Shown in pieces: positions 15,901-41,800 of a stretch of 64,000 nt of DNA. The stretch spans positions 67,332,001 through 67,396,000 of the forward strand of contig CM097885.1 of the NCBI GenBank assembly GCA_044892525.1, read 5' to 3'. Position 1 is the first letter of the stretch; each line of letters starts with the position of its first letter. The stretch comes from Schmidtea polychroa (lineage: Eukaryota). The notes under the pieces were generated by a model that saw only the letters and a list, made by a program, of their open reading frames with translations, was not told the DNA's origin and did no database searches. The position numbers and the translations under genes were made by a program.

Positions 15901-18900
15901 TGGTGAAGTAATCCGCTGATGCACACACCAACGTGTATTATAGAAACTTTTATATTTCGGATTTAGGTGTATTCAAGAGTATTCATGTCCATTATCGAGG
16001 GTGTATTGCGTTGGCGTTGATTTATACTCTTTCTAGTGCGCATGTATAATTTAAGAATAACTCAGGGGATAAAACCGATTCTCATCCGTTTTTAAATCAC
16101 TAAATAATTCCATAAAATTTTATTCAATAAAGGATATCTCAAAAAACTTGTCTGTCCTTATTTTTGTTATTTAAACAAATTTCAGATTTTCTTAAAATAT
16201 TTCTTTGATAAATTTCTTCTTTTTAAAATATTTTTCAATAAAAATATTTTTAAAATTTTTACCAAATTTCTAATTAATCTAAAGAATCTTTTAACTTCCT
16301 CATATCTCCCTCCTTAAGAAATTTTTTAAGTTTTTCCACCTTTCTTTCAATCTTTTTACCATTCTCGTTTCTTAAGATATATCGTCTGTCATGTACTTTC
16401 TCGATTACTTTATATGGTCCCTCATATCTGTCCTGGCTTTTGTTGCGTGTTTCTAATTTTACTAACACATCATCTCCTACGTCAAATTTCCTCCTTGTTT
16501 GTTCTTGTTCTTCCTTTACCTGTTTTTCTTTTGACCCGTACCATTTCTCCTTGCTAATCTTTTTTCCAAAAACTATCTCTGCCGGGCTTATTCCTGTCGT
16601 TTTTTGTTTGGTTGCATTTAATGTAAATTCGACTTCTGGTAGTATCTCTGCCGTCTTCCTTCTGTCTCGTAAAGTAGCATTTATCAGCTCTTGTATTGTC
16701 CTGAATTGCCTTTCTATCTGTCCATTTGTTTGGTGATGGTATGGACTCGAAAAACATAACTTAATATCAAGTTTCTTTGTGAATTCTCTCAACATTCCTG
16801 ATTCAAACGCCTTCCCACAATCAACTTTTATCTCCTTTGGACACCCGAATCTTAAAATCCATTTTTCTAAAACCGTTTTTTTTAATGTTTCTTCGTCTTG
16901 TCTTGTTATAGCTGTCAGGACTTGATACTTACTATACTGGTCTATTATACCCAATATATACTTCTTACGTCCTTTTATTTCTTGCATTGGTCCACCTATA
17001 TCCACAAATATAATTTCGAACATTTCGGTTGATTCTAATTTTTTTACTGGTTCCTTCGTTGTAATTGTTATAGCCTTGGTTTTTTGACAAGTCTCACAAC
17101 TTCGAATAGTTTCCTGAATCTGACTCCATAGGTTTTTCCCAATATATCTATCTTTCATATAATCAGCTATCTTCTCGACTCCAGCATGACACGCATTATG
17201 CAAATAAAATGAATTAAAAATTGGTACCGAATCCCGGTATTCTGACAATCTTAATCCCGGGATTTCGGTACCAAACAAATCCTGGATTGGATGCCTTAAT
17301 CTCAATAATAAGAATAATTCTTGAATAAGTGATAAGAACAAAATCTGAACAAATAGCAAATCAATTTATATAATAGATAAATTGCGCCAACAAGTATAAT
17401 TAATTTTGTGGAGGATACCTCGCAATTGAAATTTTTACGAAAAACAACATTTAAACGAAAAAATTCTTACCTTGACAGGTATTTGTGATTGAATACTATT
17501 AAGCGCAACTCTTTTTTTCATTTCACATATTTCTGATTCAGGCAAGGTACACTGAAAATGAAGATTAATCAGTAAATTCATAACACCACAACAATTAATA
17601 TTTTATTAATAAACACTATCCTAATCACATAATTCGAAGTAGCGGATTTACTACAGCCTACGAAAGGCCATAGATGAGGTCAAAAAATCAGTAAAGTTAT
17701 TTGAATTACTAAACATATTCAAATACAAACATGCACTTATGCTTACACTCGTTTGCAATGAATAAACGCATCTATAATGCTTAAAAAAATCAATAAGTTA
17801 ATATTATATAAACACACAAACTTACCCGCGCGCTGATTATTAGCGTTGCAATAAATAAAGGCATTTAATACACGAAACTCAACTTAGATACATTTTCTAT
17901 AGTGGCGGTTAGTGTGTATACCAATTGGTCAACAATTGGTGACTCACCAATTTAATGAATTCCATTTTTTCTAGAAATTTATTTTAATCATTTTTGAAAT
18001 GGCTTTCAGGTAAGATGCTTAATTTTCAATAAATTTTAAAAGACTTGAATTTTGATCCATATAGATATGATATTATTATTCGAATTCTTAAATATTACTT
18101 TTAGTCAACATTTGTCATTATATATTATTTTTAATTAATTTTCAGGTTTTTTGGAATTATTTTGATATAATGTAAGTCAGATATATTTTTAAATTATAAT
18201 TAAATCAATCACCAAAAATGGATTTTTCTTAAACATTCCTAAATAAAATATAAGAAATTCTAATGAATGTTTAACTTAATTTTAAGTCAAAAATAATTCT
18301 TACGATGATATTTCATTTTCATGACCATTAAAATATATTTAAAAACATTTTCAGTGATCTTTTTTTCCCTCAAAATTGTCTAAAATAAAGTTATTATAGA
18401 AATTTATCTCAACGGCGCATTTCTCTATATCGAAAGTTTGCATGTGTTTTTAGCATGTGTTGTGTTTCTGTGCAGTATTTAATTTTTCTCAACTTTTTAG
18501 ATTTCGATAGTGTAAGGTGTATCTCATTGCACTATCAATGAGAACATCAGCGTAAAATCAAAGGATGTATGTTTCTATAATGTAAGATGTAAACTGGTAG
18601 AAAAAAACTGACACACGAACACAACACATAGTAAAATATGCATGCGAAATTTCGATATGTAAAATCGTTGCAATGAATAAACGCACTATAATAAATCATT
18701 TACAGAAATTTTTAGAAAATGGCCGAAAAAACTTTAACGAAAATTCCGAAAACTCAATATTTTGTAAGATTTATCTTCAAATTAAATATAATAGTTTTTA
18801 GTATTTCACATTGAAATTTCCCTATCAATTTTGCCATCCAATGTTGATTCTGGGAAAAACTAGGAAATCGTAAATTTTATTAACCTTAATTTAAAAATCA

Positions 18901-21900
18901 ATGTCCCTCCAAAGGAGATTCGATTTAGTGAATGAGGCTTTAGGAAGTGAGTTGAAAAAGACGATTTTAGAAATTTGGAAAACTATTTTGACCACTTCGC
19001 CGTTTTTTCATAAATGTTGTAAAAAATAGATTTCTTTGGAGATAAATAAATTATATTTGTCAATTAATTTATTTAAAAATAAATGAACTCACGTTGTATC
19101 GAAATAAATCCAAATTTTTATTTATAAATATCTAAAAATCCTGTAAAAATTAATGATAAATAATTTATAATAGAAAATTTTGAGAAAAAGTAATATTTAA
19201 ATGATTTCATATCTGTATGGATCAAAATCCTTGTTTAGAAAGAAAGTGCTGTTGAAGATTTATTGATTTTATTAAATATAAGAACTTTCAATTTACGCCT
19301 ATGATTCATTTTCAATTGACATTGTATTTATTAAAAAATTGACTATCAATCAATATCGATATCGATGTTTTTTATATCTTTACTGATTCCTAGTCAACTT
19401 TTTAATCAATACGATTTTATTAAAGTTAATAAATAAATTTTCGCTAACCAATAAAATACCCGTTCTTATCATTTCTTAACTATAAGTAAAATAAATGGAA
19501 ATTATAAAAATAATTTACGAAAATGTATTGTGAATAGATAAAAAAACATTCAAAAAATATTTCACCTTCGCTAACCAAGTAGCAGTTTTCCATTCGTGAT
19601 AGGTTTCCAAATACCGACAAGCGTCCGACTGTTTGTTGATGGCACATAACAGTTGAACACCTTCTTTTAAACAGTTGTTGGAAATAAATTGTGTAGCTAC
19701 AAGTTTGACAGTACTGTGGTGAGCATTGATGCTGGATTCCGTTGACTCAGCATTGATTGCTCCATTGGCAGGTGGACGATTTGATTCGTTCGATTGATTG
19801 GCTAGCAAACAAGCCAACTGGAGATCAGAAACATAATTAGAATTGGTTGGTGGAGTTTCAAGCAGTAGTCGAACTGCTCTATCCAAATCTCCTAAATTGG
19901 TTTATTAAATTATAATATAATATTTTGGCGATAATTCCAGTGTTTTAAGATTATTGATTGGATTCGATTCCGAGTCGAATCTAATTACCAACATGAAACC
20001 GATATAAGTCATATAAGCTCAAAACAAATCTGACATTAGACATGACATCGAATATTGCTTTATGTTTTGTTAGGTTGATGATAAAAATGAATCAAATTTA
20101 AAGAAAAATTAAATTACATAATAGTCTTCGATCCCATAGAGATAAATACTTGAACTGTTATGTCATAAAATAGATTTTAGAATATACCAGACTTTGAATT
20201 ATTTAATAAAAACTAATAAAGAGAAATAATATAATGATTACTAATAAAATCCAAATATACTAACCCAACATCATAAATGCTTCTGCACATTTTTGGGTTT
20301 GTTTGTGAGTTGTTCTCTTCCTTTCTAGACTCCAAAGTCGAGACTTTTGGTAATATCGATATATTTCTGTTGACCAAAGAATCTCCCATGGTAGAAAGGT
20401 TTTGTAATTATCAGGGTAGAATACTTTTAGAACTACAATCCAAAATTTAAGCTCGTAATCATCACCGAATAGAATTGCAGTCAAATAACATCGAATGGCC
20501 AAATTCAAAGCAGTCGGTTTAGAGGCGTTCTTAAAAGAATCTAAAAATTGACTGGACGCAATTAAAAGAAATAAAATTATATCAGTATTGATCTAACTAA
20601 TTGTCAAGTTGTTCAAACATTTTTGTTAATTTAGGATCTTTGACTATATCATCTTCTGTTTCCCAAAGTTCAGGGGAAATAATATAATTCTGTCGCCAAG
20701 GTTGATGTTGTAAGTAATGCTTTAAAACAAATGATAGCTTTGGCGGGAGTAGAGAAAGACAAAATACTGGCTCTAAAATTACATTACATCAAAATAAACT
20801 ATTGGTTTTTATAATAAATGAAATTTTTTAGCATTGTTGCTACTTGCTTCTGCTAAATGCAATCTTCAGAAACTTAGTAAAATCACGACAAGCGAATTTT
20901 AAACTTCGAACGAGTATCCCTACATACAAAATTTCAAAGATTATGGATTACACAATACCAAAATATTCATTGAACCGAAAGTGATGTTGTTATATTCAAC
21001 CGCACGAATCTACTAATTAAAAAGATGTGTAGTCCAATCCAAATTATCTAAAATACGCCGCATTACCATAAAGATATGACCCCCTGCTTCACTGAATACC
21101 AATATTCGTCACATGTCAAAACTCATTATAAATCTCTAGATTTTTACTCTCTATATTAACTTTACTGATGTTTGTATGTGCCACGCAAATGTTGTAAGGC
21201 CAAATTTGCCTACTTTCCGCGATCGGATTGAGCTGAAATATGGCAAGTAGATTCGATTTCCAGAACACTACATGCTATCAAAATTTCAGATCGATCCGAT
21301 CACGGAAAATGGGTTAATTTAAAAAATATTGATATGTCAAATCTAGTGTTATTTCCTTATTTCAATGTAAAGTCTTATCTATTCATTAACTTCGGATTAA
21401 AGAGATAACGTAATTATATCTGAATATGTTATATAAGTTTGAACCAATAATTGATATGATTATCATTATCACATTATCACAATCACGTAATTTAGGGTTT
21501 CGTTTGGTCACGCAAAGTGATTTTACGTAATAATACATATTCTATATCTAGGAACTACTTGCTTTTCCCATGGCCAGTTGTATGTGGCGTGTTCAAGAAT
21601 AGGAACTGGTAAGAATTTGTACGTTTTTGCTCCTGACGGTAAAACCCGAAACATTGTATATCAAACTGCATTGTGATGAAAAAATAAATTTATTTCAACT
21701 GCATATTTTATTAAAAGTAACTAATTATACGGAAAATATCATTAACCAGACAATGATTACATTGACATTGTTGTCTCTTCGGCGAGATACATACTATCAA
21801 ATTATCTTGACTAATATCGGGTACCTCAACAAGTTAAATATATTTAAATAATTAAATAAATATATAAATATTTTCCTTACAGCAGCAAAAGTGTATAAAA

Positions 21901-23959
21901 TGCATTAAAATGAGTGATATAAAATCAACGAAATATAATAAACAAAATTAACCAGAAAAGTCCTCTAGGCTGACAACAGAACATGAGGTTTCAAGCGAGG
22001 TGGCTCTGACTATTCTAATATCCGATGTTGCCAGCAGAGCTAGAGTTTGGCCATCATCTAACCAATCAACTCCATTAATACGATTATTTATATCTTTCCC
22101 CCATTTGATTGTTTTCACCACCGTACACTTAAAATACACGACTAATCAATTTTTAATTTGTAAAAAATTGATAATTTGAACATAAAAAGAAGAATTTATC
22201 CTAAAAAATAGAACTATATCCATAATCTATATTCATCGCGGATTGACACTGCTCAAATAGCTTTTAATGATATTAATAAAAGGTAGGATATCAAAGAGGA
22301 AAATTTTATCGAATAGTTTACTGAATTCCAGGATTTAGAAACTAGAATTTAATGTATTTTTTTTAAAAAGTACAAAAGTCTACACTGTCAAAAATTATAA
22401 ATGTTAATTAGTCTGGGAAATCTCAAACATCAAAAGTAAAGAGTTAAGACTTTCTTGGACTGAGGACATTAAAATTGAAAGATTGCATGAAAGACAGACG
22501 GTTCTAAAAGTCGAGGAAATAAGACAAACTCTTTAATCAAGAATAAAGTAATATACTATTTTAACGAAAAGTAATAAAAAAGATATTAAAATACATTTAG
22601 ATAAAATAATAAAAATTATTAAATAATTTAATTTAAAACTTCATTGGAGGTAGTTGTGTAAAATAGTGTCATTTTTGTTGAATTTTATGATTATTTCATA
22701 CAATTTTGAGCTTTTTTAATAAAATTAGTTTTTGATAGGATAGAATAATTATTCTAGAGTCAGGTTTGTTGTAGATTTTTGGAGATTTCGACTTTATGTT
22801 TTTAGAATGATAATTTAGTTTGAAGATATCAATTACGTGTTTAGACTTTCTTGAAAACTGGATATTCATACTGACAAAGCCCTTAAATCTGATGATTGAA
22901 TTCATTACTAACTCTTTGTGATCAATTTAAACAATTGAATATATTTTTATGTAGTCGTATAAGTTTAATTTAATGGACAATTTTGGAAAATTAAAAATGA
23001 AAAAAACTGAAACTAAATTAAAGGTATTGATATTGACTTTGGTCATACTTTCTGACATAGAATGTGTCAAGTTACTTTAAAAGTGCTTTAATTCACGAAT
23101 GTAATACATTGTTTTGCAGATGCCAAGTGAAAGGAGGGACAGTATGAGTAGATGGATTGGGCACCGCTGGCACAAGGCACCGCTAGCACAGTACCCCCCT
23201 CCCCCTCCCCCCGTCAGTAAGATTTTCAAAAATATTCTAAGTCTAAAAGTACATTTTTTTTTCAAGGTCAAATTTAAACAAAGACATATGACTCATCAAG
23301 GTCATTGAAACAAAGACCATGAGTCATCCTATGACTCATCAAATTTTTCAAGGTCATTTAAACAAAGACCATGACTCATCCGATGACTCATCAAGGGCAT
23401 ATGACTCATAATATGACTCATCAAGGTCAAAAAAAATTTCTCAAGGTCATTTAAACGAAGACCATGACTCATCAAGGTCATTTTCAAGGTCATATGACTC
23501 ATAGTATGACTCATATGTCCTTGGAAATTTTTTTCAAGGTCATATGACTCATCAAGGACATTTTCAAGGTCATATGACTCATAGTATGACTCATTTGACC
23601 TTGAAAATTTTTTTTCAAGGTCATATGACTCATCCTATGACTCATCAAGGTCCCTTTCAAGGTCATATGCCTCATAGTATGACTCATTTGACCTTGAAAA
23701 ATTTTTTTCAAGGTCGTATGACTCATTCTATGACTCATCAAGGTCATTTTCAAGGTCATATGACTCATACTATGACTCATCAAGGTCATTCGCAAGGTCA
23801 TATGACTCATCCGATGACTCATCAAGGTCATATTATTATTTTTAAAAAATATTATTATTTTATTTTTAATTTTTTCAAAATTCCCGCTAACGAAAAATAA
23901 TAATCGATAGCTCATTTTAAAGCTCAATCCAAGACCTTTCGAATGAGCTATATAACTTG

Positions 23960-23998
<39 letters not shown>

Positions 23999-26900
23999 GT
24001 ATTAATCTATATACTCCGAGTCTATCCGACAAAATATTTTGTCCCCCTATGGGTAATGCTCACAAGGGTACTGCTCACGCTCAACAACTCGCATTCGATT
24101 ATTTTATTTTTTTAAGGTCATATCATTATTTTTCAAAATATTGCGTAATAATAATAATTTTCTTTAAATCGTTGATTATATGATAATATTTTTATTTTTG
24201 TTTTAATTATCGATTACTTAATAATTTAATTTTGTTTAAATCGTTGATTATATAATAATATTTTTGTTTTTGTTTTAATTATCGATTACTTAATAATTTA
24301 ATTTTGTTTAAATCGTTGATTATATAATAATATTTTTATTTTTGTTTTAATTATCGATTACTTAATAATTTCATTTTGTTTAAATCGTTGATTATATAAT
24401 AATATTTTTATTTTTGTTTTAATTATCGATTACTTAATAATTTCATTTTGTTTAAATCGTTGATTATATAATAATATTTTTGTTTTTGTTTTAATTATCG
24501 ATTACTTAATAATTTAATTTTGTTTAAATCGTTGATTATATAATAATATTTTTATTTTTGTTTTAATTATCGATTACTTAATAATTTCATTTTGTTTAAA
24601 TCGTTAATTATATAATAATATTTTTTGTTTTAATTATCAATTACATAATAATTTCATTTTGTTTAAATCGTTAATTATATAATAATATTTTTTGTTTTAA
24701 TTATCAATTACATAATAATTTCATTTTGTTTAAATCGTTGATTATATTATTTTTTTTGTTTTAATTATCGATTACGTTATTTTTTTTTTCAAGGTCATAT
24801 TATTATTTTTCAAAATATTATTATTTTCAAGGTCATATTATTAATTTTCAAAATATTATTATTTTCAAGGTTATATTATTATTTTTCAAAATTTTATTAT
24901 TTTCAAGGTCATATTATTACTTTTCAAAATATTATTATTTTCAAGGTCATATTATTATTTTTTGTTTTAATTATCAATTACTTAATAATTTAATTTTGTT
25001 TAAATCGTTGATTATATTATTTTTTTGTTTTAATTATCAATTACATAATAATTTCGTTTTGTTTAAATCGTTGATTATATCATTTTTTTTTGTTTTAATT
25101 ATCGATTATGTTTGTTTAAATTATCGACTATGTAATAATTTAATTTTGTTTAAATCGTTGATTATATTATTATTTTGTTTTAATTATCGATTACGTTATT
25201 TTTTTTTTCAAGGTCATATTATTATTTTTCAAAATATTATTATTTTCAAGGTCATATTATTAATTTTCAAAATATTATTATTTTCAAGGTCATATTATTA
25301 TTTTTCAAAATATTATTATTTTCAAGGTCATATTATTAATTTTCAAAATATTATTATTTTTAAGGTCATATTATTATTTTTTGTTTTAATTATCAATTAC
25401 TTAATAATTTAATTTTGTTTAAATCGTTGATTATATTATTTTTTTGTTTTAATTATCAATTACATAATAATTTCGTTTTGTTTAAATCGTTGATTATATC
25501 ATTTTTTTTGTTTTAATTATCGATTATGTTTGTTTAAATTATCGACTATGTAATAATTTAATTTTCTTTAAATCGTTGATTATATTATTATTTTGTTTTA
25601 ATTATCGATTACGTTATTTTTTTTTTCAAGGTCATATTATTATTTTTCAAAATATTATTATTTTCAAGGTCATATTATTAATTTTCAAAATATTATTATT
25701 TTCAAGGTTATATTATTATTTTTCAAAATATTATTATTTTCAAGGTCATATTATTATTTTTCAAAATATTATTATTTTCAAGGTCATATTATTAATTTTC
25801 AAAATATTATTATTTTCAAGGTCATATTATTATTTTCAAGGTCATATTATTATTTTTGTTTTAATTATCAATTACTTAATAATTTAAATTTGTTTAAATC
25901 GTTGATTATATTATTTTTTTGTTTTAATTATCAATTACATAATAATTTCGTTTTGTTTAAATCGTTGATTATATTATTTTTTGTTTTAATTATCGATTAC
26001 GTTTGTTTAAATTATCGATTATGTAATTATTTAATTTATTATTATTATTAGGAAAGATAATAACGCCCGCNNNNNNNNNNNNNNNNNNNNNNNNNNNNNN
26101 NNNNNNNNNNNNNNNNNNNNNNNNNNNNNNNNNNNNNNNNNNNNNNNNNNNNNNNNNNNNNNNNNNNNNNNNNNNNNNNNNNNNNNNNNNNNNNNNNNNN
26201 NNNNNNNNNNNNNNNNNNNNNNNNNNNNNNNNNNNNNNNNNNNNNNNNNNNNNNNNNNNNNNNNNNNNNNNNNNNNNNNNNNNNNNNNNNNNNNNNNNNN
26301 NNNNNNNNNNNNNNNNNNNNNNNNNNNNNNNNNNNNNNNNNNNNNNNNNNNNNNNNNNNNNNNNNNNNNNNNNNNTTCATAAAACTTAATTTCTACCTCA
26401 ATTACATGATTTTCAACATTTGCATGATTATTTTAATAATTTTCAATATTTTCATAATTTCCAACATTTTCATGATTTTCATAATTATTAATATTTTCAT
26501 GGATTTTTAACATTTTCATAATTTTCTACATTTTCAATATTTTCATTATTATTTCAGGAACATTTTCATTAGTTACATGAACATTTTCATCAAATATTTT
26601 TCAAAGTAATATTTCCGTTAGCTTATTTTCAAACAGTTCTTATTATTACTTTTATTATTATTTACAAAGTTGTATTATTATTATTATTATGGTTATTATT
26701 GCAAATATTCATAAAACTTAATTTCTACCATAATTACATGATTTTCCACATTTTCATCATTTGCATGATTATTTTAATAATTTTCAATATTTTCATAATT
26801 TTCTACATTTTCAATATTTTCATCATCATTTCAGGAACATTTTCATCAAATATTTTTCAGAGTATTATTTTCAAAGAATTATTTTCAAAGAATTATTATT

Positions 26901-27126
26901 ATTATTATTATTATTATTTTTATTATTTTTATTATTATTTGGAAAGTTCTAATTATTATTTACTTAAATATTTATAAAATATTTATAATTTATACGTCAA
27001 TTACATGATTTTCAACATTTTCATCATTTGCATGATTATTTTAATAATTTTCTACATTTTCATGATTATTTCAGGATTTTTTTCATCGAATATTTTTCAA
27101 AGTATTATTTTCAAAGTTTTTATCAA

Positions 27127-27157
<31 letters not shown>

Positions 27158-27539
27158 TGCGAAGTTCTCATTATTTTATTTTCGATGTTTTATTATTATT
27201 TACTTAAATATTCATAAAACTTAATTTCTGCATCAATTTACGATTTTCAATATTTGATGATTATTTTCAGGAACATTTTCATAATTTTTAACGTTTTCAT
27301 CATTTTCAATATTTTCATCATTTTCAACATTTTCATTATTTTCCATATTTTCACGATTTTCAACATTTTCAGGAACATTTTCATCATTTTCTATATTTTC
27401 ATGATTTTTAACATTTTCATAATTTTCACGATTTTCAATATTTTCATCATTACTTTCTTCAAAATTCTTAGTTTATAAAATATTATTATTATCATTTTCA
27501 AAATTATTTTCAAATTTCTTATTATTTATTTTCAAAGTA

Positions 27540-27623
<84 letters not shown>

Positions 27624-30600
27624 CTCCTTGTCTATCCGACAAAATATTTTGTCCCCTTATGGGTACTGCTCACACTCAACAGGTTGCAAGGTTACTAGTC
27701 ATGCTTATTATACATTTGATGGTTACAATTTCTAAATTTTGAAAACTCTAATTTGATTGGCTATCTCAATTTTAATAAATGTAAAAACAAAAGTAATTTA
27801 TTTATTAAGAAATTTATTACTGATGATTTCTACAAGTAAAACTGTTGAATATGAATGTGTAAATCACAAAACACATTTGGTAACTTTATTATTTTGTCAA
27901 TATTTTTTATATATGTCACTTATGTCCTACTAGAAATAAGGAAAAATTAAGTCCAACCTATTCTGAAATTTCATTGAAATTTTTCAACAACACAGTTGAA
28001 GATTTTATAAATAATCATGATACTTACAGTGATAAGCAAATCATAAATATTTTAAAAATTTTCAAACATTCCTCTATTGAATATTTGATTGATTTATTTA
28101 ATTATGATAAATGCATTTTGAAGTTATCTAGTTATTTAATGTATTTAGAAAAAACAGTGGTAAACAACGATTCACTGAATGAATTACTTTTGGAGTTGCA
28201 TGTATTTAAGGTTGAAACCGGGATATAGTAGATTGATTTATGAATGGATAGCAAAAGCCGACTTGATTGAAAATAAGCTAACGGAAAAACTGAACGATGT
28301 TAAGAAAAGGTATTTAACCTGTTCAATTTGTAAAGAAAATCAAGTTTCGATTTTGTATTTACCGTGTGGTCACGTAATTGTTTGTTCTAAGTGTCACGAG
28401 AAGAATGTTCGCAATCGTCAAGCCTGTTTAATACTGATTAATGAATATCATACTATATACATGTAAGTTCTCAATACAAATCAATACAATATCAAAGTCA
28501 AATGAATTATTAACAGACATAATGACGGTACTATAATGTAGGAAATTTTCAAACATTGAATAATATGAAATCAGCTTGGTAATTAATTATATTGGGCGCA
28601 ACTACCAAATGTTGATGATATGATGAAGGGAATGGTATTTATAATATTATTTTAAGATTATTCAAAATGAAATATAACCATGAGTTCATCAAAATGGAAA
28701 AAGATCTTCGCAAGAACCATGAAGATGCTGGATGTATTGGTTATTATTTTTTCGGAAATAAATGTTTTAATTTGTTTTTATAAATTTATTGTTTTATTGT
28801 AATACTTTTTGATTAAAATATATTCATTTTGTTTTAATATTTGTATTAATTTTTTTATATAGTGGTTATTATATATATGGAAATTTACAATTATATATAC
28901 AATTATATTTACAATTATTATAAATCATAATGATGCTTTTCTTCTGTCCATTGATTTTCCTCTGATATTACTGCCATAATCATCTTCGACAAAATGTAAA
29001 GATAATATTTCTAGTGTCTTTGTTAATTATGCCCATTTATTGCAAAGTCTTTGTTAATTATGCATTTGTATTGCAAATTTATTAGTTATACAATTATATT
29101 ATTTTTTCATAATATTATTATTTTTAATTTTATTATTATGATTATTTAACAATACCATATAGCAAATTTTTAGGCAATTTAGTGAAAAGTACATGGTTAT
29201 TTTAAATATATAACAATTTCTTAAGTAAAATATTTCCAGATAAATTTAAAAATTTAGTTAGAAATCCATGGTTTTTGGCTGTACCATTTAATTAAAATAT
29301 TCTTGGATTCATAACAAATTTTTTATATAGTTGATAGTAATACCAATTATCTCAATTATTTAACTAGAAACATAACTGAATTCTTAGGTAATATAGTATT
29401 TTTTTAGTTAATTTATAAATATTATCTGACATTTTGATGTATCAATGCAATATACAACAAATTAATCAATAAAAACCATAGCATATTGTAAGTTTTTATA
29501 TATAGTCTGAATTTATCCGACAATATATTTTGTCCCCCTATGTGTATTTGTCGTAAGGGTACTGCTTACATTCAACATGTCGCAAGGGTACTGCTTACAT
29601 TCAACATGTCGCAAGGGTACTGCTTACATTCAACATGTCGCAAGGGTATATTAATTAAAGCACATGTATATTAGTTAAATTTTCTTAGGTAATTTAGTGA
29701 GAAATGGATGATCATAGATATCAGAAATTCGTGAATATTTTGAATGTAACTTACCGAATTCTCATTTCGAGCGACTAATTTATTGGTTAACTTTGTCATG
29801 TTTAGTCATTTAAAATAATATTTAGCAAAAGGTAAGATATGAATATTTAGTATTTCATAGGTAATTTATTCATGTAATGTTCATTACAATAGTTAATATA
29901 ACTTCGTGGGAAATGCATATTCATTAATAACAACATATATTCATTGATAATTTTGGTAGAAAGTCTTTATCATTTGGAGTAAATTTCTATCTTTGTTTGA
30001 GGCAAAAGGAGTCATAATAGAAACATGATCATTTAGTTATCATTTAACCAATTAAGGTGCTTATTAGTTAGAAATATAGGGTTACAATTCTTTTCTAATT
30101 TATTGAGATGATCATTGGGTGTAATATATCTTTGTGAGAAATACATGCTTAACATTATTAAATAGGGATTTTGAGTAACCTTTTACCAAAACAGCGATAT
30201 TTTGTGCGAATAATTTAAGAATATTGGTTAATTTTCTCTTTTTTAGTCATTTAAAATAATATTTAACAAAGGTAATTTAGCAAAATATCATTGAAAGATT
30301 TATCCATCCGATAACTATATTTCTTCAATAGATTTTACCCTTAATATTCAACCGATTTAATTTCTAGAAATCTAATTAAAATCATAAAATATTTTCAATA
30401 AAGATCAATTTTCTTTAGCTGTTGTCGATTTCCAACTTTTAAGTCAATATTTCTCAAGTTTTGTCACAGATATCCCCACAATGAATAAAATAACTTCTTA
30501 AATAAAATAATTTAATAACCTTTGATATCAATCCCAATTAATTCTAAAGATTTCAAATATTTCATTGTCAAAACCAAGTAAATAGATCATTAACCCTAAA

Positions 30601-33600
30601 CGACTTAATAAAACAATGGTTAATTAATAAAAATTGGTTCTAAAACATAAATTACTGTACAATAACATTCATCACAACCTAATAAAACGATATAATTTCA
30701 CAGGAACTATTATTAATTCATAGCTAAATACTGACTATGTCCCTTTGATATTTTATCAATAAGAACATTGTCGATTTAAATAGAGATTTCAAACATTTCC
30801 GCCTTAACCGATCCCTCACTAAATATTTCTACCCCATTAAATACCCCCTTTAAAAATCATTTATTACCATCTTAACTGAACCTTCACTAAATCCAACCGA
30901 CTTTAATATATCAATTCTCTTAAAATCCATAGAAAATTCTTCAAAATATGAATTTTATTTAATTGTTACAGACATCCTTCCATTGAAATAATTTAGTATC
31001 TAAATTCATGTAGTAAGAGCCCACTAAAAGATCACTAAAATCAATATTTTCTACAAATATTTCACCACATTTACCATCAAATACCTAACTAGAAATGAAA
31101 TATATTGATCATAATTCTTCATCGATTCAGCCAATTATATAGCAATTATAACCGTGATATATCTTTCAAAATCACAAATTTCAGTATATTTTACAATAAT
31201 TTTCAAGTAGATTTCAAATATATCATCATGATAAAATTAGCTGGTTTCAACTTTAGATTTTCAATATTTAAAAGTTCATCAATATTCGTAGAAAATATAT
31301 GAAAGAATTATTTTGTCAATATCATTACAAAGTCATCATAAAAATTAAATAATAATCACTTGATTATTGTAAAAACTCTAATTATTAACCTAACTGTCAT
31401 TAAAAATAATTTTTATTTAAAATTAAATTTAAAAACAAGTCAATAAAATATAGCAAATTATCCAGAAATTAATTAAATTTGTCTTAGAATTTAAATTAGA
31501 CCTTAAATTTTCAATTATTCACAAAATGGTTAGTAATAATGTTAGTAAAATCCCGCTAACTCTAAAAATTACCAATGAATTTAATGCTAAATAATAACCA
31601 AATATTTGCCTAAATAAAAACATTAAAACACACCAGTACCTTTACGACCAGTACCCCTACGAGCAGTACCATTTGTGAACAGTACCCATAGAGGGAGAAA
31701 ATATCTTGTCGGATAAACTCAGAGTATATATAATAAAACGAATTAACAATAACTCCATCAAATTAAATCAGCCAAATTAACACAAATTTTGATAAAAAAT
31801 CTTATTCTAAAATGGTAAGAAGCGTAAAGTCGAAAGATAATTTTAATAACACTCGAGATAAATTAACAATATTATTCTCAGATGGTAAGAATCTTCATTA
31901 AAGTTAGAAATTATAAGAACCAACAATTGCTATAAAGTATTTAATCGAATTTGGTTTTGTTGTTTTATGTCTTTCGGTTATATTTGAGTAAGATTTCGTG
32001 TGTCCCTTTTAACTTTGAATGCTAATTTTCATTGAAAAGAGTAATGTATCTTAAATTATCTTTTAGAATATTTGTTTTTGAAAATGAAATATTTAGTGTA
32101 AAATAGTAAATTTAATAATAAATTGCTAATATATAAGGACTTAATCAAAATTTAAAATATGAATTTATCATAATTACTCAGTCAAATACCATTCACGGTT
32201 TCTTCTGTAATAAAATAATCATTTGGGTCAAAAATGGTACTGCTCGTAGGGGTACTGGTCGTAAAGGTACTGGTGTGTTTTAATGATTTTATTTAGGCAA
32301 ATTTTTGGTTATTAATTAGCATTAAATTCATTGGTAATTTTTAGAGTTAGCTGGATTTTACTAACATTATTACTAACCTTTTTGTGAATAATTGAAAATT
32401 TAAGGTCTAATTTAAATTCTAAGACAAATTTAATTAATTTCTTGATAATTTGCTATATTTTATTGACTTGTTTTTAAATTTAATTTTAAATAAAAATTAT
32501 TTTTAATGACAGTTAGGTTAATAATTAGAGTTTTTACAATAATCAAGTGATTATTATTTAATTTTTATGATGACTTTGTAATGATATTGACAAAATAATT
32601 CTTTCATATATTTTCTACGAATATTGATGAACTTTTAAATATTGAAAATCTAAAGTTGAAACCAGCTAATTTTATCATGATGATATATTTGAAATCTACT
32701 TGAAAATTATTGTAAAATATACTGAAATTTGTGATTTTGAAAGATATATCACGGTTATAATTGCTATATAATTGGCTGAATCGATGAAGAATTATGATCA
32801 ATATATTTCATTTCTAGTTAGGTATTTGATGGTAAATGTGGTGAAATATTTGTAGAAAATATTGATTTTAGTGATCTTTTAGTGGGCTCTTACTACATGA
32901 ATTTAGATACTAAATTATTTCAATGGAAGGATGTCTGTAACAATTAAATAAAATTCATATTTTGAAGAATTTTCTATGGATTTTAAGAGAATTGATATAT
33001 TAAAGTCGGTTGGATTTAGTGAAGGTTCAGTTAAGATGGTAATAAATGATTTTTAAAGGGGGTATTTAATGGGGTAGAAATATTTAGTGAGGGATCAGTT
33101 AAGGCGGAAATGTTTGAAATCTCTATTTAAATCGACAATGTTCTTATTGATAAAATATCAAAGGGACATAGTCAGTATTTAGCTATGAATTAATAATAGT
33201 TCCTGTGAAATTATATCGTTTTATTAGGTTGTGATGAATGTTATTGTACAGTAATTTATGTTTTAGAACCAATTTTTATTAATTAACCATTGTTTTATTA
33301 AGTCGTTTAGGGTTAATGATCTATTTACTTGGTTTTGACAATGAAATATTTGAAATCTTTAGAATTAATTGGGATTGATATCAAAGGTTATTAAATTATT
33401 TTATTTAAGAAGTTATTTTATTCATTGTGGGGATATCTGTGACAAAACTTGAGAAATATTGACTTAAAAGTTGGAAATCGACAACAGCTAAAGAAAATTG
33501 ATCTTTATTGAAAATATTTTATGATTTTAATTAGATTTCTAGAAATTAAATCGGTTGAATATTAAGGGTAAAATCTATTGAAGAAATATAGTTATCGGAT

Positions 33601-36282
33601 GGATAAATCTTTCAATGATATTTTGCTAAATTACCTTTGTTAAATATTATTTTAAATGACTAAAAAAGAGAAAATTAACCAATATTCTTAAATTATTCGC
33701 ACAAAATATCGCTGTTTTGGTAAAAGGTTACTCAAAATCCCTATTTAATAATGTTAAGCATGTATTTCTCACAAAGATATATTACACCCAATGATCATCT
33801 CAATAAATTAGAAAAGAATTGTAACCCTATATTTCTAACTAATAAGCACCTTAATTGGTTAAATGATAACTAAATGATCATGTTTCTATTATGACTCCTT
33901 TTGCCTCAAACAAAGATAGAAATTTACTCCAAATGATAAAGACTTTCTACCAAAATTATCAATGAATATATGTTGTTATTAATGAATATGCATTTCCCAC
34001 GAAGTTATATTAACTATTGTAATGAACATTACATGAATAAATTACCTATGAAATACTAAATATTCATATCTTACCTTTTGCTAAATATTATTTTAAATGA
34101 CTAAACATGACAAAGTTAACCAATAAATTAGTCGCTCGAAATGAGAATTCGGTAAGTTACATTCAAAATATTCACGAATTTCTGATATCTATGATCATCC
34201 ATTTCTCACTAAATTACCTAAGAAAATTTAACTAATATACATGTGCTTTAATTAATATACCCTTGCGACATGTTGAATGTAAGCAGTACCCTTGCGACAT
34301 GTTGAATGTAAGCAGTACCCTTGCGACATGTTGAATGTAAGCAGTACCCTTACGACAAATACACATAGGGGGACAAAATATATTGTCGGATAAATTCAGA
34401 CTATATATAAAAACTTACAATATGCTATGGTTTTTATTGATTAATTTGTTGTATATTGCATTGATACATCAAAATGTCAGATAATATTTATAAATTAACT
34501 AAAAAAATACTATATTACCTAAGAATTCAGTTATGTTTCTAGTTAAATAATTGAGATAATTGGTATTACTATCAACTATATAAAAAATTTGTTATGAATC
34601 CAAGAATATTTTAATTAAATGGTACAGCCAAAAACCATGGATTTCTAACTAAATTTTTAAATTTATCTGGAAATATTTTACTTAAGAAATTGTTATATAT
34701 TTAAAATAACCATGTACTTTTCACTAAATTGCCTAAAAATTTGCTATATGGTATTGTTAAATAATCATAATAATAAAATTAAAAATAATAATATTATGAA
34801 AAAATAATATAATTGTATAACTAATAAATTTGCAATACAAATGCATAATTAACAAAGACTTTGCAATAAATGGGCATAATTAACAAAGACACTAGAAATA
34901 TTATCTTTACATTTTGTCGAAGATGATTATGGCAGTAATATCAGAGGAAAATCAATGGACAGAAGAAAAGCATCATTATGATTTATAATAATTGTAAATA
35001 TAATTGTATATATAATTGTAAATTTCCATATATATAATAACCACTATATAAAAAAATTAATACAAATATTAAAACAAAATGAATATATTTTAATCAAAAA
35101 GTATTACAATAAAACAATAAATTTATAAAAACAAATTAAAACATTTATTTCCGAAAAAATAATAACCAATACATCCAGCATCTTCATGGTTCTTGCGAAG
35201 ATCTTTTTCCATTTTGATGAACTCATGGTTATATTTCATTTTGAATAATCTTAAAATAATATTATAAATACCATTCCCTTCATCATATCATCAACATTTG
35301 GTAGTTGCGCCCAATATAATTAATTACCAAGCTGATTTCATATTATTCAATGTTTGAAAATTTCCTACATTATAGTACCGTCATTATGTCTGTTAATAAT
35401 TCATTTGACTTTGATATTGTATTGATTTGTATTGAGAACTTACATGTATATAGTATGATATTCATTAATCAGTATTAAACAGGCTTGACGATTGCGAACA
35501 TTCTTCTCGTGACACTTAGAACAAACAATTACGTGACCACACGGTAAATACAAAATCGAAACTTGATTTTCTTTACAAATTGAACAGGTTAAATACCTTT
35601 TCTTAACATCGTTCAGTTTTTCCGTTAGCTTATTTTCAATCAAGTCGGCTTTTGCTATCCATTCATAAATCAATCTACTATATCCCGGTTTCAACCTTAA
35701 ATACATGCAACTCCAAAAGTAATTCATTCAGTGAATCGTTGTTTACCACTGTTTTTTCTAAATACATTAAATAACTAGATAACTTCAAAATGCATTTATC
35801 ATAATTAAATAAATCAATCAAATATTCAATAGAGGAATGTTTGAAAATTTTTAAAATATTTATGATTTGCTTATCACTGTAAGTATCATGATTATTTATA
35901 AAATCTTCAACTGTGTTGTTGAAAAATTTCAATGAAATTTCAGAATAGGTTGGACTTAATTTTTCCTTATTTCTAGTAGGACATAAGTGACATATATAAA
36001 AAATATTAACAAAATAATAAAGTTACCAAATGTGTTTTGTGATTTACACATTCATATTCAACAGTTTTACTTGTAGAAATCATCAGTAATAAATTTCTTA
36101 ATAAATAAATTACTTTTGTTTTTACATTTATTAAAATTGAGATAGCCAATCAAATTAGAGTTTTCAAAATTTAGAAATTGTAACCATCAAATGTATAATA
36201 AGCATGACTAGTAACCTTGCAACCTGTTGAGTGTGAGCAGTACCCATAAGGGGACAAAATATTTTGTCGGATAGACAAGGAG

Positions 36283-36336
<54 letters not shown>

Positions 36337-36713
36337 TACTTTGAAAATAAATAATAAGAAATTTGAAAATAATTTTGAAAATGATAATAATAATATTTTA
36401 TAAATAAACTAAGAATTTTGAAGAAAGTAATGATGAAAATATTGAAAATCGTGAAAATTATGAAAATGTTAAAAATCATGAAAATATAGAAAATGATGAA
36501 AATGTTCCTGAAAATGTTGAAAATCGTGAAAATATGGAAAATAATGAAAATGATGAAAATATTGAAAATGATGAAAACGTTAAAAATTATGAAAATGTTC
36601 CTGAAAATAATCATCAAATATTGAAAATCGTAAATTGATGCAGAAATTAAGTTTTATGAATATTTAAGTAAATAATAATAAAACATCGAAAATAAAATAA
36701 TGAGAACTTCGCA

Positions 36714-36762
<49 letters not shown>

Positions 36763-38827
36763 TTGATAAAAACTTTGAAAATAATACTTTGAAAAATATT
36801 CGATGAAAAAAATCCTGAAATAATCATGAAAATGTAGAAAATTATTAAAATAATCATGCAAATGATGAAAATGTTGAAAATCATGTAATTGACGTATAAA
36901 TTATAAATATTTTATAAATATTTAAGTAAATAATAATTAGAACTTTCCAAATAATAATAAAAATAATAAAAATAATAATAATAATAATAATAATAATTCT
37001 TTGAAAATAATTCTTTGAAAATAATACTCTGAAAAATATTTGATGAAAATGTTCCTGAAATGATGATGAAAATATTGAAAATGTAGAAAATTATGAAAAT
37101 ATTGAAAATTATTAAAATAATCATGCAAATGATGAAAATGTGGAAAATCATGTAATTATGGTAGAAATTAAGTTTTATGAATATTTGCAATAATAACCAT
37201 AATAATAATAATAATACAACTTTGTAAATAATAATAAAAGTAATAATAAGAACTGTTTGAAAATAAGCTAACGGAAATATTACTTTGAAAAATATTTGAT
37301 GAAAATGTTCATGTAACTAATGAAAATGTTCCTGAAATAATAATGAAAATATTGAAAATGTAGAAAATTATGAAAATGTTAAAAATCCATGAAAATATTA
37401 ATAATTATGAAAATCATGAAAATGTTGGAAATTATGAAAATATTGAAAATTATTAAAATAATCATGCAAATGTTGAAAATCATGTAATTGAGGTAGAAAT
37501 TAAGTTTTATGAANNNNNNNNNNNNNNNNNNNNNNNNNNNNNNNNNNNNNNNNNNNNNNNNNNNNNNNNNNNNNNNNNNNNNNNNNNNNNNNNNNNNNNN
37601 NNNNNNNNNNNNNNNNNNNNNNNNNNNNNNNNNNNNNNNNNNNNNNNNNNNNNNNNNNNNNNNNNNNNNNNNNNNNNNNNNNNNNNNNNNNNNNNNNNNN
37701 NNNNNNNNNNNNNNNNNNNNNNNNNNNNNNNNNNNNNNNNNNNNNNNNNNNNNNNNNNNNNNNNNNNNNNNNNNNNNNNNNNNNNNNNNNNNNNNNNNNN
37801 NNNNNNNNNNNNGCGGGCGTTATTATCTTTCCTAATAATAATAATAAATTAAATAATTACATAATCGATAATTTAAACAAACGTAATCGATAATTAAAAC
37901 AAAAAATAATATAATCAACGATTTAAACAAAACGAAATTATTATGTAATTGATAATTAAAACAAAAAAATAATATAATCAACGATTTAAACAAATTTAAA
38001 TTATTAAGTAATTGATAATTAAAACAAAAATAATAATATGACCTTGAAAATAATAATATGACCTTGAAAATAATAATATTTTGAAAAATAATAATATGAC
38101 CTTGAAAAAAAAATAACGTAATCGATAATTAAAACAAAAAAAATAATATAATCAACGATTTAAACAAAATGAAATTATTATGTAATTGATAATTAAAACA
38201 AAAAATATTATTATATAATTAACGATTTAAACAAAATGAAATTATTAAGTAATCGATAATTAAAACAAAAATAAAAATATTATTATATAATCAACGATTT
38301 AAACAAAATTAAATTATTAAGTAATCGATAATTAAAACAAAAACAAAAATATTATTATATAATCAACGATTTAAACAAAATGAAATTATTAAGTAATCGA
38401 TAATTAAAACAAAAATAAAAATATTATTATATAATCAACGATTTAAACAAAATGAAATTATTAAGTAATCGATAATTAAAACAAAAATAAAAATATTATT
38501 ATATAATCAACGATTTAAATAAAATTAGATTATTAAGTAATCGATAATTAAAACAAAAACAAAAATATTATTATATAATCAACGATTTAAACAAAATTAA
38601 ATTATTAAGTAATCGATAATTAAAACAAAAATAAAAATATTATCATATAATCAACGATTTAAAGAAAATTATTATTATTACGCAATATTTTGAAAAATAA
38701 TGATATGACCTTAAAAAAATAAAATAATCGAATGCGAGTTGTTGAGCGTGAGCAGTACCCTTGTGAGCATTACCCATAGGGGGACAAAATATTTTGTCGG
38801 ATAGACTCGGAGTATATAGATTAATAC

Positions 38828-38881
<54 letters not shown>

Positions 38882-41800
38882 TAACAAGTTATATAGCTCA
38901 TTCGAAAGGTCTTGGATTGAGCTTTAAAATGAGCTATCGATTATTATTTTTCGTTGGCGGGAATTTTGAAAAAATTAAAAATAAAATAATAATATTTTTT
39001 AAAAATAATAATATGACCTTGATGAGTCATCGGATGAGTCATATGACCTTGAGAATGACCTTGATGAGTCATAGTATGAGTCATATGACCTTGATGAGTC
39101 ATAGAATGAGGCATATGACCTTGGAAAAATTTTTCAAGGTCAAATGAGACATACTATGAGTCATATGACCTTGAAAGTGACCTTGATGAGGCATACTATG
39201 AGTCATATGACCTTGAAAATGACCTTGATGAGTCATAGTATGAGTCATATGACCTTGAAAAAAATTTCCAAGGCCATATGAGTCATACTATGAGTCATAT
39301 GACCTTGAAAATGACCTTGATGAGTCATGGTCTTCGTTTAAATGACCTTGAGAAATTTTTTTGACCTTGATGAGTCATATTATGAGTCATATGACCTTGA
39401 TGAGTCATCGGATGAGTCATGGTCTTTGTTTAAATGACCTTGAAAAATTTGATGAGTCATAGGATGACTCATGGTCTTTGTTTCAATGACCTTGATGAGT
39501 CATATGTCTTTGTTTAAATTTGACCTTGAAAAAAAATGTACTTTTAGACTTAGAATATTTTTGAAAATCTTACTGACGGGGGGGAGGGTACTGTGCTAGC
39601 GGTGCCCTGTGCCAGCGGTGCCCAATCCATCTACTAGTATGTGACATTTCCAGAAGTGTTGATTTAAGAAAAAAATGGGAGTTCGCCAAAGTGAGATTAA
39701 ACTTAAACATTTTACTTTTCATTTAGAATGTTTGAAGTAGACTAATTTTCCAAAAAAATATCCTCATTAAAATCCAGTTTTATAATTTTGACGCCCTTGC
39801 TAATAATTAAGAGACACCATATTGAAATGACAACCAAAAATTGAAAGAATCACGAAATTTGGTGCGTGCTAATCTACTACTCAATAACACGAAAACAAAA
39901 TTTCGAAGCATATTAAGACAACATGGTTCAGATAGATATTATTGTATATGCTAAGAAAAACGGTATAGAAATCTGTATAGAACTGATTAAACAAAGCTGT
40001 GAACTTGCTGACAATAACTGGAATGAGTAAAATTAATACATTCTAAAATGTAATATTCTGTTAAAGTTGAATATAAATTTGTTCCAACTGAACACAGATT
40101 TTGTGATATTAGTTACTAAGAAATCGACCAAACAACAAGGACAGATAAAACTGCATATTTCTACGACACTGATATCTAGGGTTTATATACCGGTTTACCG
40201 GAAAATTGGCAAAAAAACACTCGGTAAATTTACCGGTAAATTAAAAATTTTTGATAGAAATTTTTATTCTGAAATTTTATTCTGATATTTCCGATAGTGA
40301 ATATGATCACATGATCATTGAATCTTTTCAACGTGTTCTTCTAAAGAAAATACTAATTTATATGTGGCTGATGTAACGTTAAAATTTATGTTGAATGAAT
40401 TGTCTAAACAAAATAATTTTATAAGCACTGAATTAAAAAAAACCCTTAATATGCAGCATAAAGGAGAGAAGGATTATCCATTGAGATATTCTGCAATATT
40501 TGACAGACCCTAATTTGGTTTTTTCGAATCAGGAAAACTACGATATTTTTCATATCACAAATAAAGCAATTTTCGATTATTGTTGTTGATAGTCAGATTC
40601 AGTTATTCAGTCAAATTCATCCTGATTTGGACACCAGTTTAGAGTCAAATAATAAAAATATTGACACTTCTACAGTTAATGTAGAAATGCCTATGAATCA
40701 GAAATTATACTATCTGAATAAACAAAAAACCGAATGCCAGGAAGGATCAGTTCCACAACCAAAATAATTGGCAATATATTGTGAAAAAAGAATTGTAATA
40801 CTTCCGCCAAGAGAAAGTACGCGTAAAGTATATTCAAATGGTATATGATTATTTGATGACAATTCGTCCAACAAGTGTTGATTCAGAAAGGGTATTCTCG
40901 GGCTCTGGGTTATTTTGTACAAAAATAAAAACAAAATTAGGGAATAGGACTTTAAATAATTTAAGTTTTCTGAGGAGCTATTTTTTAAAAAATGTTAATA
41001 AATAGAAAACTATTATTTAATAAAGCTATTTCTGTGTCATTATTATTTTTTTTTACTTTATTTTTATTTGTTTCTAAAATATTGTTGGGTTATAAAATAA
41101 TTAAAATTAAAATTGAATTATATTTGTAATTAAAAGTGCCTAAAAGAGGAAAAACAAGAAAATGAAATTAATTAATTAGCTAGTAGAAAGAAATCCCGAG
41201 TTGGGTAAACAAAGAGAAAAGTAAACAGAAGGAAGATTTGGGCCCATTATCGTTTCACAATCATTAATGGGAGAAGACCAAGAAAAAGATAGTGCGTGCA
41301 GAAAGACCCAGGCGGGCCATTAATTATCTTTGTTCGTTGGACCATTCTGGGTGACAGCCGAAGCAGATTTGTGGAGTCGAATGTCAAGAGAGAGATGGGC
41401 TCGGCAATAACCATTTGTCATCCCGATTTCGAAGAGTATATAAGGAATGGAAAAATCAAAGCAAACAGGCATTTTGCCTCGGATAGGGACAAGAAGAAAC
41501 TGAGCTTAGGGTAATCAGAAAGTTAGGGAAACGAACGGATAGAGTTAGGAAATAATTGAGACGTGAAAAGAAAATTGAATTGGAAGCGGACCAGATCAAA
41601 TAGGAAAAATTCGACTAAAGGGTGAATATTGATAAAGATTTTGACAAAGCATGAGCGCCTAGCGGAGAACCGATTAAACTGGTAAAACTCTGTCGTTGAT
41701 TGTATCGTTGGATTGTGAGAGATTTGTGATTCGAATATACGTTGGGTAGTTTATTGTTTTGTAATTTACGATTAAAAGGACAAGTGGAGTCAGAGGTTAC

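Follow-up and report, generated by a model that had tools for sequence, protein, structure and literature searches.

A repeated module of TATA-like box and palindrome, suggestive of a promoter, in a probable Polinton-type fold-back element of Schmidtea polychroa

Promoter motifs shared by several genes of one genome have been described in virophages and polinton-like viruses, namely the Gezel-14T/PgVV early motif and the late motif of Mavirus and Sputnik (10.1101/2022.07.28.501842). These motifs are short, are borrowed from a helper giant virus and lie near start codons. In this study, we report a module of 53 base pairs (bp) present in four diverged copies within a fold-back element, probably derived from a Polinton/Maverick, in a stretch of 64,000 nucleotides (nt) of Schmidtea polychroa (contig CM097885.1, positions 67,332,001 to 67,396,000), hereafter the window, of which 47 kb lie outside the element. 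As in virophages and polinton-like viruses, the same motif recurs at several sites of a genome related to Polintons. The module differs from theirs in being a composite of 53 bp that includes a TATA-like box, in residing in a nuclear element of an animal, and in having a link to a gene start in only one copy. It may work like an element-specific promoter.

Two other described systems come close in architecture. In promoters of small nuclear RNA (snRNA) type, which consist of a proximal sequence element (PSE) and a TATA box and depend on SNAPc, a block of about 20 bp stands at a fixed distance from the TATA box. The module likewise has a block of this scale at a fixed distance from its TATA-like hexamer, but no conserved RNA-like sequence is found on either side of it; no flatworm PSE for comparison was found in the literature searched. 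The homologous regions (hrs) of baculoviruses resemble the module: they are repeats about 60 bp long, scattered in AT-rich surroundings, and every one of them contains an imperfect palindrome (PMC4535591). They carry 2-8 palindromes per locus. In SpltNPVII the number is three to eight, and a single unit works poorly (PMC4535591). The hrs are clustered palindromes of circular genomes, whereas here one palindrome accompanies a TATA-like box at each locus of a linear, integrated element.

Copies and anatomy of the module

The four copies that the original prediction had placed in this stretch were all recovered, with TATATA at 24008, 27618 and 29499 on the plus strand and at 31730 on the minus strand. 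The palindromes and the tandem arrays beside the modules were also as it had described them, the palindrome being perfect in copies 1 and 2. The copies and their related features are the following:

24008-24060, plus strand: core of module copy 1, with an (ATT)n run before it; palindrome at 24028-24043, array units from 24051 and from 24066
27618-27670, plus strand: core of module copy 2, with (ATT)27 before it; palindrome at 27638-27653, array units from 27661 and from 27690
29499-29551, plus strand: core of module copy 3; palindrome at 29519-29534, with one mismatch
29549-29648, plus strand: GGGTACTG array of copy 3, 3.4 units of 29 bp
31678-31730, minus strand: core of module copy 4; palindrome at 31695-31710, with two mismatches; within the unique centre of the fold-back
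31632-31686, minus strand: array of copy 4, 3.6 units of 15/16 bp; the left fold-back arm stops inside it (31678)
32228-32274, plus strand: cut mirror of copy 4, array units without the core; the right arm starts here
34355-34407, minus strand: mirror of copy 3, not independent
36236-36288, minus strand: mirror of copy 2, not independent
38766-38818, minus strand: mirror of copy 1, not independent
23189-23196, minus strand: terminal GGGTACTG, with its mirror at 39586-39593

The element thus holds seven full cores, three of which are mirror images and add no independent evidence. The original prediction was right as to the four copies and had missed both the giant inverted repeat and the three mirror copies.

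Copies 1-4 could be aligned without gaps over 53 columns and were 75-89% alike, with 41-49 matches over 55 columns in the pairwise comparisons. The likeness ended sharply on both sides: identity over the 55 nt on the TATA side was 0.27-0.47, that is, background, and over the 55 nt beyond the module 0.16-0.35, with one pair at 0.60 owing to common array units. When matrices were built leaving one copy out, the held-out copy scored 51-67 bits and any other position of the window at most 13.5 bits. In the 47 kb that flank the element within the window, the matrix scan found no further module. In addition, GGGTACTG has 16 exact matches in the window against 0.15 expected, and 15 of them are inside the element.

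The presence of this octamer in the terminus, which the original prediction had pointed out, is correct, but its sharing with the modules is at chance level. A word of at least this length was shared between the shuffled terminus and a copy in 130-494 of 3000 trials; in 221 of 3000, the terminus shared a 7-mer with every one of the four copies. Outside the element, GGGTACTG occurs only once, at 6052, in a stretch of 290 bp (5826-6115) with terminus-like words at both ends. This stretch was considered as a terminus relic and rejected, as 46 of 300 shuffles scored equally.

Variation among the copies was unevenly distributed. Out of the 14 variable columns of the 53, none fell in the six of TATATA, six in the nine of the spacer, two in the 23 of the block formed by TATCC and the palindrome, and six in the 15 of the tail. 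The spacer was constant in length (9 bp) across copies while its sequence varied. The difference between spacer and block gave a Fisher P of 0.002, with blocks picked after looking; a permutation without block choice gave P 0.035 for both features jointly and 0.14 and 0.10 for each singly. The first array unit begins 28 nt after TATCC in all copies and is directly preceded by an ATG in all of them; the arrays comprise two to five units with periods of 15, 16 or 29 nt. With such periods there is therefore no common reading frame, and the module as a short coding exon was rejected on these periods and on the unvaried third positions.

No folding signal beyond that of shuffles was found in the copies (z from -0.01 to -1.35, DNA parameters), nor any compensatory change in the palindromes of copies 3 and 4. 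The module had no match in Rfam, which returned five sub-threshold microRNA-like matches, all of them in the subterminal array, and the transfer RNA search gave none. A structured RNA gene was consequently rejected, there being no conserved fold, compensatory change, Rfam match or tRNA match. Because TATATA and the 23-bp block are near-invariant and the 9-bp spacer is fixed in length only, the sequence suggests a pair of protein sites held at a constant distance on double-stranded DNA and accompanied by repeated accessory sites. It had also been claimed that the module is conserved while the adjacent open reading frames decay. This finds slight support: modules are expected to take 7.2% of the variant rows and took none of the 40 listed out of 263 (P about 0.05).

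Promoter reading and competing explanations

The reading that we favour, and on which our judgement is evenly balanced, is that the module is a TATA promoter carried by a Polinton family and used more than once, for accessory genes. A promoter-type, protein-binding reading is preferred because the spacing from TATA to block is fixed and folding and coding signals are absent. The module would be a double-stranded, protein-binding unit of transcription control, in which a TATA-like hexamer stands 9 bp from a 23-bp recognition block; the block would probably be bound by a dimer, and a variable number of GGGTACTG sites would lie beyond it. In an ancestral element the module may have been copied several times as a ready-made promoter for accessory genes; these genes would later have decayed, and the fold-back event would have doubled three of the copies. 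The proposal draws on the sequence, the spacing, the sharp borders, the constraint pattern, the confinement to the element within the window and the RING relic found after copy 2; from these we infer binding of the TATA-binding protein (TBP), a second bound factor, transcription and a direction of firing.

Either direction of firing is possible because TATATA reads alike on both strands. In mouse, the functional window of the TATA box is -32 to -29 from the start (PMC1779604). If this spacing applies, firing towards the array would therefore place the start inside the palindrome, with the block lying over the start site. If it fires the other way, block and array would serve as ordinary upstream activator sites; on the side opposite the array the first ATG beyond 30 nt is at +98, +128, +72 and +87 in copies 1 to 4, and none of these is in a verified gene. 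The module has in common with TATA-box core promoters of RNA polymerase II the TATA-like hexamer and the strict downstream spacing. TATAWAWR is matched on both strands by copies 3 and 4, and TATAAAC occurs once in the element, at no module. TATA boxes are found in only 5% of planarian promoters and the putative planarian Initiator in only 10-40% (PMC10558129). Planarian Polintons are transcribed and controlled by PIWI-interacting RNAs, and they gain trimethylation of histone H3 lysine 4 (H3K4me3) and RNA in differentiation (PMC8532177).

The original prediction had placed a RING gene behind copy 2 and a leucine-rich-repeat (LRR)-like gene behind copy 4. The former was confirmed as a relic:

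27823-28445, plus strand: decayed RING-finger gene relic with frameshifts and stops (PF13920, E 3.5e-10)

Its first candidate ATG is 205 nt after the TATATA of copy 2. The coding signal of the relic reached z 4.0 on the plus strand in a rough test in which one of four control stretches also gave z 4.0; the LRR-like region gave z 0.2 in the same test. The LRR-like gene was not borne out: no frame had a Pfam match, and phmmer over 1.84 billion proteins returned one spurious repeat protein only. In the 12 frames of 27700-32231 read with X at stops, Pfam found RING and one weak unrelated match only. By eye, leucine-rich-like pieces can be made out to the left and to the right of copy 3, on the minus strand. 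The likeness between 29130-29480 and 29660-31450 was not significant, 150 of 200 shuffles scoring equally.

Further observations concern the surroundings of the relic. A B-box-like Cys/His pattern was seen, by eye only, near its start, and a reverse CCAAT word at 27755, between copy 2 and the relic, could mark a separate promoter. The frame 27884-28225 had no relatives in viral contigs, and its matches in the ESM Atlas (0.90-0.92) were all to clusters without a name, the recognition score being low.

Other sequence data were consulted for the distribution of the module. The stretch or part of it was contained in 20 of 24 runs (7 studies), and the contigs of four were compared with 27600-32300; these contigs are short, and their depth does not equal copy number. 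In run X1 (organism A), 64,004 contigs cover all 30 bins, and the family is therefore large. Relative to the median of the 27 remaining bins, the module bins of X1 stood at 1.3, 1.5 and 2.7, a level that cross-mapping between copies would produce, and the share of contigs running into unlike sequence was 0. Because this excess is small and no contigs run on into unlike sequence, a dispersed free MITE (an inverted-repeat transposable element of miniature size) is disfavoured in organism A. No loose end at the TATA edge was present among the 24 listed of 1867, a test limited by the short contigs.

In run X14 (organism B, a small share of words), the module bins reached 27, 31 and 100 times the median. 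The bin with the core of copy 4 was at about 100 times the median depth and its two neighbours were not; the neighbours of copies 2 and 4, as well as the RING relic, were nearly empty, and the core was kept at at least 82% where the neighbouring bins drop away. One loose end (5 records) carried the core with a different array-side flank. This flank and the depth at copy 4 count in favour of the promoter reading. The sequence on both sides of copy 3 was covered in both X1 and X14, and organism B may hold mainly a copy-3-like arrangement.

Viral contigs searched with exact patterns yielded 0 stretches for two core forms and 0 for the subterminal word. A paired-octamer scan yielded 120 stretches in viral contigs, and a metagenome scan seven, with a guanine plus cytosine content of 41-46%, without the octamer and with no blastn match to the element. 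These 127 loci were rejected as relatives, since they score at most 24.6 bits in the matrix against 66-78 for true copies and are chance matches.

Several points weigh against a promoter. Copies 1 and 2 match TATAWAWR on neither strand, and the core of the putative planarian Initiator, taken from the consensus and about two thirds of the matrix rows in Table S3 of PMC10558129, was found in none of the four modules in either direction. An ATG stands 41 nt after TATATA in all four copies and would open a short frame (10-44 codons) ahead of any downstream gene. Only one of the four copies faces a verified gene relic, the LRR-like gene having failed three tests, so that, of the predicted promoter upstream of each gene, the promoter-type reading is favoured while the position before a verified gene holds for copy 2 alone. 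No gene begins on the array side of copy 3, and this copy stands among five occurrences of an 11-bp motif (29172-30270), two to its left and three to its right, a flanking pattern that fits insertion. Copy 1 has tandem arrays on both sides. In X14, two bins without the core (around copy 3; 30269-30425) were as deep as the module bins. Finally, the constraint test is based on four related sequences.

Insertion is the basis of a different explanation, in which a small mobile element (a TA-targeting MITE or a Helitron/Helentron-type end) was inserted repeatedly into the Polinton and left the copies as its ends or relics, the "TATA" being the target site and the arrays subterminal repeats. We regard it as unlikely. 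It would account for the abrupt border that each of the four copies has at the TA run, for copies 3 and 4 facing each other like the inverted ends of a 2.2-kb unit, and for copy 3 breaking up the region of the repeated 11-bp motif. The 16-bp palindrome also fits the length of a Helitron end, which has a palindrome of 16-20 bp and then a CTRR terminus (PMC6544945). However, CTRR is at the TA border in none of the copies, and no second end is common to them; the MITE class was rejected on structure, as the four copies do not present two inverted ends with a target duplication. The lack of modules in the 47 kb outside the element, the small excess in X1 together with its lack of run-on into unlike sequence, the lack of loose ends among those listed at the TATA edge, and the coverage of both sides of copy 3 in both runs speak against it as well.

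Rather more doubtful, in our view, is a signal for replication, packaging or recombination, either an hr-like origin/enhancer or a site of template switching or cassette deletion. It has in its favour that the fold-back junction, a single event, lies inside the array of copy 4; as modules and arrays occupy 424 of 8589 bp, this position is a coincidence of about 1 in 20. A joint found in X1, from the array of copy 2 (27672) to that of copy 3 (29615), would delete the RING relic, but may just as well reflect a variant copy whose mapping spans two arrays of similar sequence. A non-autonomous element may, moreover, need cis-signals more than promoters. The hr-like reading of the original prediction fails on architecture, with one palindrome per locus, and its link to the terminus is not significant; its resolution-site idea retains a single anecdote, the junction just mentioned. 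No stable hairpin was found, and copies 3 and 4 show no compensation for their changes. Replication of the protein-primed kind begins at the termini and does not require an internal origin. We assign the same low probability to passive duplicates of a piece that had a function in the past or never had one, produced by slippage and local duplication in a repeat-rich element and with no present role. The element is full of internal duplications, three of its seven copies are plain mirror images, copies 1 and 2 have the ATT run in common (91% alike over 109 bp, this run included) and the present-day constraint is borderline (P about 0.05). Against this explanation, the changes are concentrated in the spacer, the 53 columns are free of gaps with the copies diverging by 11-25%, and the core is retained in organism B while the neighbouring bins drop away.

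An extended form of the promoter reading is improbable and is put forward as such. The module would represent a promoter class reserved for animal Polintons, its fixed geometry similar to that of snRNA promoters, and would be read by a short TATA-binding protein together with a dimeric, sequence-specific factor; its arrays would double as switch points that delete accessory cassettes and give birth to fold-back satellites.

The host element and its other repeats

The element and its boundaries are as follows:

23147-39635, no strand assigned: non-autonomous fold-back element of 16,489 bp with Polinton/Maverick-type ends AGTAG...CTACT
23141-23146, plus strand: left 6-bp target site duplication, the same 6-mer as the right flank
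39636-39641, plus strand: right 6-bp target site duplication, the same 6-mer as the left flank
31679-32227, no strand assigned: unique centre between the fold-back arms, 549 bp

The inverted repeat makes up nearly the entire element. Positions 27570-31678 are mirrored by 32228-36336 at 100% (rounded), with 549 nt between, and the longest match from arm to arm is 98.7% over 5325 columns. The arms measure about 7.4-8.5 kb and differ in array copy number; an assembly gap is found at mirrored places in both of them. A fold-back with long arms and a 549-bp centre resembles a snap-back defective genome.

Polintons end in AG...CT, as this element does, and it is also like them in its inverted termini, its 6-bp target duplication and its size of 16.5 kb. 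Inverted termini and target duplications of 5-8 bp are described features of Polintons (10.1101/2023.08.22.554363). The element differs in its arms, far longer than the 100-1500 bp of Polintons, and in the RING relic being its only recognisable gene. No frame for polymerase, integrase, ATPase or capsid was seen in it, the frames of at least 100 amino acids being repeats, gaps or the RING relic. Because such frames (PolB included) are missing, it is probably a non-autonomous derivative of a Polinton/Maverick and not an autonomous member. WDR11-like exons flank it on the minus strand, at 19515-20592 on the left (E 2.5e-08) and at 45465-49803 on the right (E 1.6e-04, which fails the cut-off). Since they lie on both sides, the element probably sits in an intron of a WDR11-like gene.

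The non-coding remainder of the arms is built of motif arrays, a point in favour of the promoter reading. ATGACTCA is present in 41 copies in the element and three in the 47 kb outside, and TCAAGGTCA in 52 copies against one; both form subterminal arrays at 23260-23830 and 39011-39530. We take these two words to resemble AP-1 and NR5A/FTZ-F1 sites, respectively. The core of the putative planarian Initiator, as far as its published matrix was accessible, has 38 matches on one strand of 24111-26060 against 27, on both strands, in the 47 kb outside. These matches sit in 72-bp and related tandem arrays, with 22 on the other strand of the right-arm mirror. The word of these arrays presumably resembles a forkhead site. 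It may be that the Polinton array is one of Initiators, or that repeats of this kind contributed to the motif as published.

Some other words were noted near the modules. TCCCGC followed by TAAC occurs at 23882, some 125 nt away from copy 1 on the side of its TATA, and at 31551, about 80 nt past the array of copy 4; we assume this word to be E2F-like. Two adjacent TACTAAC words, of splice-branch-point type, lie at 31500-31560 on the minus strand, downstream of the array of copy 4, and may be a local duplication. On the minus strand of 26380-27540 there are repeats with a 9-bp period in four units of about 256 bp, with low-complexity Glu-Asn-x frames; their coding z of 5.9 is probably a composition effect. 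Elsewhere in the window, transposon-like frames were recognised by eye at 2170-3457, 10845-11327, 14458-15299, 16274-17365 and 55877-57010. These five stretches we presume to be pieces of hAT-type transposase, gypsy-type integrase and Tc1-like transposase, labels that are unconfirmed.

Meaning of the finding

The module is real and, within the literature searched, undescribed, and the finding is a modest one. No description of such a module was found in a literature coverage to which subscription journals, Repbase and preprint supplements did not belong, and no account of one is given in the accessible text of PMC6431247, 10.1101/2025.02.07.637071 and PMC11410931. If the copies are inserted fragments or passive duplicates, they are ordinary repeat anatomy. 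How genes are switched on in animal Polintons has hardly been described. In this regard, a unit of 53 bp with fixed geometry is a compact bait for binding and reporter work, and a tag for the autonomous partner of a high-copy fold-back family.

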